A DNA stretch of 64,000 nt, from sequence record NC_000866.4; one strand, 5' to 3'. This DNA is from Escherichia phage T4. Positions 1 to 34,507 of this stretch are shown one piece after another (position 1 is the stretch's first letter; every line of letters begins with the position of its first letter). A program made the translations under genes and the position numbers. The notes beneath the pieces were generated by a model. The model made no database searches and was not told the DNA's origin. It saw only the letters and a program-made list of their open reading frames with translations.

Positions 1-253
1 GCGTAATTAATCCTTTAAAAGGTCCATCAATAAATTCCATGGTAAAATATGGAATTTTATTCATTAGCCGTGCATTAGGAGCAGTGCACAAAACTCTGCA
101 TCCTTTGAATACGCCTTTTTGTAATTTGTATTGCTTGGGATAAAATTCGCTCAAAATGTTATTTTTTGCCAAAATTTCAAAATGATTCACCAATTTATTT
201 TTAATAGTTTTTGGCGAAAAATAAAGATATTCGAAAAGCTGAGTGTCTGTCAT
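1..253 (-). CDS. hypothetical protein, N-terminal part only (gene runs off the window start)
   Basis: ATG at 253..251 overlaps the stop of the upstream ORF (ATGA); minus-strand frame stays open to position 1; no recognisable motif. Confidence 0.4.
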   Translation of the reverse strand, partial: MTDTQLFEYLYFSPKTIKNKLVNHFEILAKNNILSEFYPKQYKLQKGVFKGCRVLCTAPNARLMNKIPYFTMEFIDGPFKGLIT

Positions 254-912
254 CATTGCATTCCGATTACGAAAAACTGTGGACGAGTAATACCACCAAT
301 GCAACATTTACTATTACAGCAGTAGTGTACGGTGTCAATATGGACACTATAAATCTTATCCATATCAGGAGATTTGACAGGCTCATCAATTATATACAAA
401 ATTCGCGAAAGCTTTAAACCTCTGAACTTGCTTCCTTTATTACCAATAAAACTGCGTACAGAATCAGTAAATAAACGAAAACGTATATCATCATTAGAAT
501 AACGCGAAAATTCCTTTTTGATGTTATTTGCAGAAATTTTAGCATAAGCTGAAGTATTAGAAAGAACAATAACTGTTCCGCCATCATACAACCAATTAGC
601 AGCAAAGTTAGTCACAGCAATTGATTTACCGGATTGACGTCCACCATCTAGTCGAAGTGTACAATACTGTTTAAGTAAGTCTTCAAATGGCGGGATATAT
701 TCGTTTTTACAAATTTCTTCTACTCTAGCATCAGAATGGTGTGTAAAAGCATTCATCAGGGATAGATAAGGACCAGTTAAAAATGTTCTCATTTCTTCTC
801 TATAAGCTCTATAAGTTTGGGCCATTCCGTGGCACATGAATTGTCCATTTCTGTATTTACCCATTACCGCGCTTGGGCTCGACCTTATTACAGGTTGGCG
901 GGAATCCCTCAT
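253..912 (-). CDS. P-loop NTPase-like hypothetical protein
   Basis: 219-aa ORF from the track; Walker-A-like GGRQSGKS; same orientation as and immediately downstream of denV. Confidence 0.55.
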   Translation of the reverse strand: MRDSRQPVIRSSPSAVMGKYRNGQFMCHGMAQTYRAYREEMRTFLTGPYLSLMNAFTHHSDARVEEICKNEYIPPFEDLLKQYCTLRLDGGRQSGKSIAVTNFAANWLYDGGTVIVLSNTSAYAKISANNIKKEFSRYSNDDIRFRLFTDSVRSFIGNKGSKFRGLKLSRILYIIDEPVKSPDMDKIYSVHIDTVHYCCNSKCCIGGITRPQFFVIGMQ

Positions 913-938
913 ATAATCATGAGGTCCAGGTTGTTCCC

Positions 939-1355
939 TTATGCATAAATCGCCTTACCGTAGTATTTGTACCAAGTAGGACGTTGTGCAATTTTTTCAT
1001 CTAAACGAGCTTGTGATATAGCAATAGAAGCTTCATGGGGAATATAATCACCACGGAATTCCTGAGGAATATCACTAATATCCTGGACTGTAGTATCCTT
1101 GATATTAAAACCACGTTTTAAACATTCAGCTATAAGCTCAATTTGACGTTTACGTAAGAACTCGAGCTTATCGTAAAAGAATGTAACATGACCTGCGCCA
1201 AGGATAAAAGTAGGACTGATTTTAAAATCACGAACACGTTTACCGTTAGCAACATGCTTACGAACTGCACCAAAAACACGCGGCAATTCACGATATTCAG
1301 CCATTAAGTGTTGGTCAGCCAATTCAGATACTAAAGTAAGGTTGATACGAGTCAT
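939..1355 (-). CDS. denV: endonuclease V, pyrimidine-dimer DNA glycosylase/AP lyase
   Basis: 138-aa ORF ([28 protein letters not shown]...) matches my recollection of T4 endonuclease V. Confidence 0.95.

Positions 1356-31366: not shown

Positions 31367-34507
<3,141 letters not shown>

Follow-up and report, generated by a model that had tools for sequence, protein, structure and literature searches.

The stretch of DNA considered here, referred to below as the window, comprises 64,000 nucleotides (nt) of the Escherichia phage T4 reference sequence NC_000866.4, and the locus in question is an open reading frame (ORF) at positions 253-912 on its minus strand, beside the repair gene denV. Inspection of the letters alone, termed the sequence-only reading below, had described the product of 219 amino acids (aa) as a P-loop protein that could not be placed in a family, which raises the question of what this protein is, what it might do and which of its neighbours it belongs with. 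The ORF is present, and is identified by its sequence as T4 vs.8, formerly named 'ORF 64.0'; the position of this gene in the T4 reference (Table 1) means that the window corresponds to the reference from position 64001 onwards. Both the identity and the fold class of Vs.8 are already published. The most interesting feature at these coordinates is a conserved and apparently undescribed RNA element that lies immediately upstream of the probable start of the gene.

Motifs and predicted fold of Vs.8

The octapeptide GGRQSGKS, earlier picked out as resembling a Walker A motif, is a P-loop in the full sense. In an alignment of 19 homologues T85, L86, D89 and GGRQSGK (residues 90-96) are invariant, with either serine or threonine at position 97, and T85, L86, D89 and GGRQSGK are at least 90% conserved in an alignment of 41 sequences. 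It is because of this invariance across homologues that the motif is regarded as real, and in the structure model it lies between a strand (residues 85-88) and a helix (residues 93-109). A fortuitous match within a fold unrelated to nucleoside triphosphatases (NTPases) was checked for and does not apply. The heptapeptide TVIVLSN, previously suggested as a Walker B-like strand, does form a β-strand of the sheet, but was rejected as the Walker B motif: it contains no conserved motif, conservation in its vicinity being limited to the adjoining G111 and G112 in the 19-homologue alignment, and the invariant hhhhDE is located elsewhere, at I171-E177. Among the 19 homologues L172, I174, I175, E177 and P178 are invariant in this segment, and D176 is at least 90% conserved. 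The Cys-rich tail HYCCNSKCC is likewise present, but is limited to close relatives of T4; it varies even among these and is gone in other genera, in both the 19- and the 41-sequence alignments. A metal site formed by this cluster was therefore ruled out, as its residues are not conserved.

The most distant members of the family (P0056, P0058 and P0066, the first of which is known solely from contigs of less than 600 bp) carry SGH[ST] in place of the SGK[ST] of the Walker A motif, and lack the Asp-Glu of the Walker B motif. Their sequences suggest a catalytically dead branch of this family of mini-ATPases.

A Foldseek search of the PDB with a first model, of the 219-aa chain, found nothing at E ≤ 0.001, and because a disordered N-terminus and a long helix impaired this search the protein was modelled again from Met41 with 41 sequences. 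The second model (predicted local distance difference test, pLDDT, 87.9; predicted template modelling score, pTM, 0.87) comprises five parallel strands and flanking helices. A Walker A motif between strand and helix, a Walker B motif followed by a glutamate and a parallel α/β sheet are all found, and as a prediction the assignment of Vs.8 to the additional strand, catalytic glutamate (ASCE) type of P-loop fold is secure. The general description of Vs.8 as a P-loop protein of NTPase type is thus upheld by its invariant Walker A and B motifs and by this fold. The chain stops two residues after the fifth strand of the sheet, F213-G217, which from strand order alone would be the counterpart of the strand bearing the coupling (C) motif in gp17, the T4 large terminase.

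Relation to the large terminase

A Pfam search with Vs.8 returned matches to AAA and Terminase_6N, all of them below threshold, and a search of NCBIfam returned no match. PADLOC gave weak, generic AAA/P-loop matches only, and a sequence-profile search of the PDB found only marginal P-loop matches, with E values of approximately 0.05. The PHROG database, by comparison, contains Vs.8 as a full-length member of PHROG 1488 (E 1e-78), the annotation of which carries no function, while 37 of 41 relatives match PHROG 2586 as well, likewise a family of no annotated function. PHROG 2, the 'terminase large subunit', is matched by T4 Vs.8 with an E value of 1.7e-5 and independently by 25 of the 41 family members, the best at 3.9e-8. 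Hence the protein can be placed after all, in PHROG 1488 and as remote kin of the large-terminase ATPase domain (PMC13601566).

Homology of vs.8 to the T4 terminase's ATPase domain, with conserved Walker A and B motifs, was reported in the same study, in which vs.8 reaches T4-like terminases by PSI-BLAST (PMC13601566). Comparison of a Vs.8 profile with gp17 using hhalign sets GGRQSGKS on L160-SRQLGKT167, and FRG...ILYIIDE on V244-RG...MIYIDE256. A BLASTP comparison of Vs.8 with gp17 was not significant and had the wrong register; the sensible register is found in the profile comparison alone. A terminase ancestry is suggested by these sequence profiles together with the literature. As neither an RNase H-like nuclease/translocation domain nor a lid domain is present, Vs.8 is therefore best described as a homologue of the ATPase core of the large terminase (TerL), and not as a terminase.

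Among the viral models in BFVD, the Foldseek neighbours closest to Vs.8 comprise numerous small, uncharacterised proteins from large phages, after which come a phi29-type encapsidation ATPase, PhoH-like proteins and terminases. These predicted structures hint that big phages contain a wider class of ATPase-like proteins made up of one stand-alone domain. The uncharacterised mini-ASCE proteins in BFVD are 120-185 aa in length and include examples from Proteus phage phiP4-3, Vibrio phage JSF10, Aeromonas phage Aes012, Dickeya phage JA29, phage PhiPA3 and Erwinia phage Desertfox.

Translation start of vs.8

The annotated vs.8 ORF is probably 40 codons too long, with translation starting at Met41. 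Homologues of Vs.8 are mostly 173-181 aa in length and begin at the equivalent of Met41, the PHROG 1488 match spans residues 43-219, and in relatives in-frame stops are found 0-4 codons 5' of the Met41 equivalent. A conserved, purine-rich stretch resembling a Shine-Dalgarno (SD) sequence is positioned 4-12 nt 5' of the Met41 codon. Residues 1-31 are predicted to be disordered (pLDDT < 50), and the annotated Met1 AUG (912-910) sits within a conserved, covarying RNA stem, described below. If right, the Met41 start alters the construct that should be expressed.

It could be argued that T4 translates the ORF over its whole length of 219 aa, with the N-terminal 40 residues forming a T4-specific extension and the upstream conservation reflecting, for instance, a recombination or other DNA-level signal. 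No stop interrupts the frame over these 40 codons in T4, and many close relatives (P0001, phage PST) have it open over 16-17; both GenBank and UniProt annotate Vs.8 at 216-219 aa. However, this proposal has to contend with the predicted disorder of the extension and the stops found in frame there in other genera, with the lack of an SD sequence ahead of Met1 and the burial of its AUG in a covarying stem, with substitutions in the stretch that keep base pairing rather than the reading frame, and with the decision of most annotators of related genomes to leave it non-coding. Translation of the full-length ORF is on this evidence improbable.

Positions 1-1400 of the window are 100% identical to X04567, a T4 record of the 1980s, and 99.3% identical to modern T4 genomes. 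Within the vs.8 stretch just two differences from re-sequenced T4 (T4T, RB55, RB59 and others) are seen, and both fall inside the first 40 annotated codons: a 9-bp tandem duplication (Table 1), and a C/T change at window position 834 on the minus strand, which is T here and C in the re-sequenced strains (C27R in annotated Vs.8). The annotated protein is 219 aa in reference-type sequence and 216 aa in re-sequenced T4.

A conserved RNA element upstream of vs.8

The 120-nt element that precedes the Met41 codon retains approximately 90% nucleotide identity where the Vs.8 protein is 38% identical, whichever gene lies upstream. By blastn it is found in approximately 1,050-1,080 phage records, where annotators have mostly left it non-coding. 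A core of approximately 45 nt recurs in Vequintavirus at approximately 93% identity, and is also present after the endolysin gene of a 44.9-kb phage (Ivi), in viral contigs of 46-70 kb and in other viral contigs; the RNA core is taken as approximately 41 nt, of which approximately 31 nt are nearly invariant, as is the junction UCGAGCCCAAG.GCGGUAA. A covariance model finds a single copy in the window, at 856-903 on the minus strand, with a score of 65.8 bits and an E value of approximately 4e-19.

The principal evidence for structure comes from P1, the helix that closes the core. In a gap-free alignment of 34 distinct 48-mers, with position -i paired with position +i around the core, one P1 pair is C-G in 27 sequences and G-C in seven, while the next is C-G in 20, G-C in six, U-A in four, A-U in three and G-U in one; at neither pair is any sequence unpaired. 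The covariation score of P1 is 0.236 against 0.069 in shuffled alignments, none of 500 of which reaches the observed value, and all slid registers are worse. In an alignment of 44 distinct copies, which was fitted to the covariance model and so leans toward the structure, P1 is maintained, and P3, which has 2 bp, acquires two changes from C-G to U-A. Compensatory changes are also found in the 5' stem-loop, both in Dhakavirus (GGGAG:CUCCC and CCUCACA:UGUGAGG) and in Vequintavirus (GGGG:CCCC and CACAU:AUGUG). With approximately 8-10 independent lineages of the RNA, the covariation support for the proposed structure is good but not overwhelming. Folding of single sequences gave results no better than those of shuffles for five of six representatives, so that the comparative evidence alone counts. 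A helix suggested by RNAalifold in the core, GCCC:GGGU, was rejected, because it fails in the CHI14, L058 and L059 types, in which P1 holds.

Several other explanations of the conserved stretch were considered. ARAGORN finds neither a tRNA nor a tmRNA, and a search of window positions 700-1000 against Rfam with cmscan, on both strands and with E values up to 10, returned only a chance match to a snoRNA elsewhere in that stretch. Derivation of the core from the host was also rejected, since blastn against 5,426 E. coli genomes gave no match to it. Fourteen pattern matches in bacterial genomes are attributable to chance, as approximately 35 would be expected and none has the GCGGUAA extension; under the covariance model, matches in bacterial genomes are partial only and score no more than 22 bits. 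No published description of the element was found in the searchable literature, in a search that was far from exhaustive.

Some phages carry a second copy of the core. Two copies 40-70 nt apart are present in L054 (829-961), L056 (9020-9179) and L031 (5093-5251), and L016 contains copies at 1004-1051 and 1526-1573, approximately 475 nt apart. The second copy is the more degenerate, with scores of 35-48 bits as against 56-68. Blastn matches to the element in 18 Campylobacter phage records, if real, would extend its range beyond the phages of enterobacteria.

Genomic context and possible role of the RNA element

All the T4-like copies checked are located approximately 35-590 nt 5' of a vs.8 homologue, with some T4-like phages carrying either two elements in tandem or a gene resembling those for internal proteins between the element and vs.8. 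Most of the other phages checked have tRNA genes in the same orientation within approximately 175-1,400 nt of the element. In L051 and L058 an intrinsic terminator lies 3' of the element, and in Vequintavirus its 3' side is occupied by a strong promoter-like sequence, TTGACA-17-GATAAAAT. A conserved core with a covarying closing helix, the position ahead of vs.8 in T4-like phages and the terminators in L051 and L058 would suit a riboswitch or leader. The promoter-like site in Vequintavirus, together with the placement by tRNA genes elsewhere, fits better with a stand-alone RNA than with a riboswitch or leader, and across all contexts a stand-alone or processed small RNA fits at least as well as a leader. 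Outside the T4-like phages, placement within or beside tRNA clusters, on the same strand, is usual, as in L014 (2105-2916), L021, L025, L033, L038, L049, L029 and L051, and in L049 a tRNA-like T-arm sequence, GCGGTTCGATTCCGC, starts approximately 80 nt after the element.

It is tentatively proposed, at somewhat less than even odds, that the element represents an undescribed class of structured phage RNA common to T4-like phages, Vequintavirus, Ivi and viral contigs. It may perhaps act in trans as a small RNA that binds a conserved factor of the host or the phage, or, in T4-like phages, as a sensor or leader of the early vs.8-vs.3 operon. If this is true, a new class of phage RNA, common to unrelated phages, lies beneath a mis-annotated start codon of the most studied phage, and T4 genetics and the defined downstream operon provide an experimental handle on it.

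Proposed role of Vs.8

The reading of Vs.8 favoured here, and considered reasonably probable, is that the protein consists of an ASCE P-loop ATPase core standing on its own, that this core descends from the N-terminal ATPase subdomain of a large terminase of T4 type, and that it acts early, with Vs.7, in a role related to phage-host conflict. The protein keeps the terminase-style P-loop G-R-Q-x-G-K-S/T, the Arg-Gly element, the Asp of the Walker B motif and the catalytic Glu. By homology, K96 and S97 would hold the phosphates of ATP-Mg, R92 would be the P-loop arginine of terminase style and E177 would activate water, and ATP hydrolysis is probable. Having no lid and no nuclease/translocation domain, Vs.8 would therefore be no packaging motor on its own, and would neither translocate nor cut DNA. 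Its expression is early, well ahead of that of the late terminase, and accompanies that of the translationally coupled Vs.7; a complex of the two proteins is probable. In published data vs.8, vs.7 and denV are classed as early in both RNA and protein (PMC9697503).

The connection with host defence comes from a screen in which T4 proteins were co-folded with EcAvs2 using AlphaFold 3 (AF3), by which vs.8 was found (PMC13601566, Nat Commun, 3 Aug 2026). It showed toxicity in co-expression with EcAvs2, with an AF3 interface pTM (ipTM) of 0.84, and was modelled in the Avs2 pocket with a bridging ATP (PMC13601566). On the basis of this published co-expression toxicity and AF3 model, terminase sensors of Avs2 type would recognise Vs.8 because it copies the face that the terminase ATPase presents when loaded with ATP. 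The authors left open the role of vs.8 during infection, while suggesting that it might have an anti-defence origin (PMC13601566). The gene is also part of an accessory block, vs.8-vs.3, that encodes the TadIV-1 sponge: TadIV-1, directed against type IV Thoeris, is Vs.3, and when each of Vs.3 to Vs.8 was expressed singly under 'the promoter of vs.8', immunity was impaired by vs.3 (PMC13243611). The role of Vs.8 would most likely lie in the conflict between phage and host, rather than in packaging or in UV repair.

Several observations weigh against this interpretation. The Pfam match to Terminase_6N reaches only 12.2 bits, compared with a cut-off of 22 bits, and the hhalign probability against the single gp17 sequence is only 11.7%, despite the sensible register. 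The overlap with vs.7 is absent from STP4-a and from the distant T4-like phage PP397179. As activation of EcAvs2 harms the phage, and was observed in co-expression rather than infection, it is uninformative on the role for which Vs.8 has been selected. Finally, the replacement of Lys by His and the loss of the Asp-Glu in the distant members of the family may mean that catalysis is dispensable across the superfamily.

This last point bears on the main rival to the favoured reading, namely that Vs.8 is purely a decoy: an early, abundant mimic of the terminase that occupies sensors of the Avs or Upx type non-productively, with ATP bound for the sake of mimicry and its hydrolysis irrelevant. The distant relatives without the catalytic Lys and Glu would fit such a binding-only role, and Vs.8 retains exactly the part of TerL that is recognised by Avs2, the packaging parts having gone (PMC13601566). 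Expression before the late terminase, a location in the same accessory block as the proven anti-defence gene vs.3, and the anti-defence origin raised as a possibility by the discoverers of the Avs2 interaction are all as a decoy would lead one to expect. However, the sole experiment recorded activation of EcAvs2, as toxicity, and not its inhibition; the catalytic Glu and the Arg-Gly are strictly conserved in the core clade, which would be needless in a protein that only binds; and the conserved partner Vs.7 is left unexplained. A pure decoy is consequently judged to be rather unlikely, though not negligibly so.

Considerably less likely is a role as an accessory of DNA metabolism, with Vs.8 either modulating the gp16/gp17 motor, perhaps as a subunit mixed into the gp17 ring, or serving as a repair partner of DenV. 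Such a role would be in keeping with the homology to the gp17 ATPase core and with the arrangement in T4, where vs.8 and denV are neighbours on one strand and nothing resembling a terminator separates them. This adjacency is not conserved, however, even within Tequatrovirus; Vs.8 is early while packaging is late; the regions of gp17 beyond the ATPase core are absent from it; and the family is confined to some enterobacterial T4-like phages, with packaging and DenV-type repair proceeding elsewhere independently of Vs.8. Least likely of all, and very doubtful, is that Vs.8 is the degenerate single RecA1 domain of an SF1/SF2 helicase and no derivative of a terminase, for it consists of one domain of 179 aa and matches no helicase family in Pfam, NCBIfam or PHROGs.

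Family distribution and gene neighbourhood

The Vs.8 family is small and discrete; at 50% identity, approximately 50 representatives are found in a set of 1.84 billion proteins, with lengths of approximately 140-260 aa, none being of terminase length. One copy of vs.8 per genome is present in 1,008 T4-like phage records, as compared to 928 phage records for vs.7. The order of transcription on the minus strand is e, ipIII, ipII, denV, vs.8, vs.7, vs.6 to vs.3 and regB, and because this order puts vs.7 after vs.8, the partial ORF at 1-253 that had been described as upstream is in fact the downstream gene vs.7. Joint conservation of this ORF with vs.8 was checked and was found in several T4-like genera: a vs.7 homologue with the 4-nt ATGA overlap is present in T4, PST, PhAPEC2, PSD2002, WG01, the Klebsiella phages Roth51 and K65_evo10, and the Serratia phage CHI14, encompassing at least the four genera Tequatrovirus, Mosigvirus, Dhakavirus and Winklervirus as well as unclassified Klebsiella phages. 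Vs.7 (L001 2927-3256) is 109 aa in length, belongs to PHROG 2049 and has no Pfam match. It is likely to be the functional partner of Vs.8, and, being conserved and translationally coupled, is worth both co-expressing and co-deleting with it.

Table 1. Features of the vs.8 locus, in window coordinates
Feature	Position	Strand	Remarks
Annotated vs.8 ORF (T4 reference)	253..912	-	219 aa; T4 coordinates 64253-64912
Vs.8 coding sequence, Met41 to stop	253..792	-	179 aa; probable true extent
Walker A/P-loop, G90-G-R-Q-S-G-K96-S97	622..645	-	Terminase-style Arg-Gln; compare S-R-Q-L-G-K-T in gp17
TVIVLSN, aa 113-119	556..576	-	Sheet strand after the P-loop helix; strand 113-118/73-78 in the models
Arg164-Gly165	418..423	-	Invariant; precedes the strand of Walker B; gp17 R245-G246 in the alignment
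Walker B and catalytic carboxylate, I171-L-Y-I-I-D176-E177	382..402	-	Strand 171-176; aligned to gp17 M251-IYIDE256
Cys-rich HYCCNSKCC, aa 196-204	301..327	-	Variable columns; block of lowest pLDDT in the second model
C-terminal strand, F213-F-V-I-G217, then M-Q and stop	262..276	-	Conserved
Structured RNA element (proposed)	819..938	-	denV-vs.8 spacer and annotated vs.8 'codons' 1-31; ends just before the Met41 SD
5' stem-loop	900..938	-	Outer GGGAA(938-934):UUCCC(904-900); inner CCUCAU(924-919):AUGAGG(912-907)
RNA core, covariance-model match	856..903	-	P1 899-895/863-859; P2 894-892/885-883; P3 878-877/870-869
3' hairpin, GCCA-CGGAA-UGGC	821..833	-	Common to T4-like versions
Tandem 9-bp duplication, CTTATAGAG x2	798..815	-	Two copies here and in X04567; one copy in re-sequenced T4
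denV (endonuclease V)	939..1355	-	Upstream neighbour of vs.8 in T4
vs.7, cut by the window edge	1..256	-	4-nt overlap (ATGA) of its ATG with the stop of vs.8

The emphasis that had been placed on denV as the neighbour of vs.8 holds for T4, but is purely positional. In phage PST, PhAPEC2 and STP4-a the place 5' of vs.8 is taken by a gene for an internal protein, in WG01 two ORFs separate denV from vs.8, and the Roth51 stretch has no annotated denV. Scanning for sigma-70 promoters and for terminators revealed nothing promoter-like from denV to Met41 and nothing resembling a terminator. Co-transcription of vs.8 with denV in T4 is plausible, as the two are on the same strand without such a terminator and are each expressed early, in RNA as in protein. 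The absence of a conserved link to denV should help follow-up work on Vs.8, though the answer obtained for this protein amounts to the correction of a record and does not open a new field.

Annotation of this region is uneven. Among phage records that include MK962755, LN881733, MN850590 and KF925357, several give vs.8 and vs.7 homologues names such as 'endoribonuclease' or 'RegB domain-containing', which appear to have spilled over from the nearby regB, and two, Sfk20 and Roth51, label the vs.8 homologue 'terminase large subunit'. Two genes 3' of vs.8 and just outside the window, vs.6 (L001 2557-2919) matches the Pfam family Gly_radical (E 3e-18) and resembles a GrcA 'spare part'; its homologue in PhAPEC2 is annotated as 'autonomous glycyl radical cofactor'.

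Comparison with known systems

Vs.8 may be set beside Ksap1 and Ksap2, activators of Avs2 that are not terminases and that share with it a small size, restriction to particular phage lineages and a central β-sheet with flanking helices (PMC13601566). For vs.8, homology to terminase was reported along with both Walker motifs, A and B, and a bridging ATP that is kept in place, and the likeness to the Ksap proteins is drawn solely from the description given in that paper (PMC13601566).

The closest known counterpart of Vs.8 is gp17 (PDB 2o0h), which is encoded in the same window at 32672-34504 on the plus strand. An Arg-type P-loop (SRQLGKT in gp17, GRQSGKS in Vs.8) and the segment IYIDE/YIIDE are common to Vs.8 and the N-subdomain I of the gp17 ATPase. 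By contrast, gp17 is 610 aa in length and Vs.8 179 aa, the latter lacking the N-terminal region (approximately 135 aa in gp17), the lid subdomain and the entire domain for nuclease and translocation. The Vs.8 strand that by its order would match the one with the TTT coupling motif of gp17 finishes with G-M-Q and the stop codon, the position aligned to Q143 of gp17 is not conserved, and Vs.8 is expressed early while the gp17 terminase is late.

Several RNAs are encoded in phage tRNA clusters, including the small stable RNAs rnaC and rnaD of T4 and the ornate GOLLD and ROOL. The element upstream of vs.8 is likewise phage-encoded, appears to be structured and, in phages other than the T4-like, is co-oriented with tRNA genes in or near their clusters. 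It differs from rnaC, rnaD, GOLLD and ROOL in being much smaller, with a core of only approximately 41 nt, and in its position in T4-like phages, where it lies directly 5' of vs.8 and outside the tRNA cluster.

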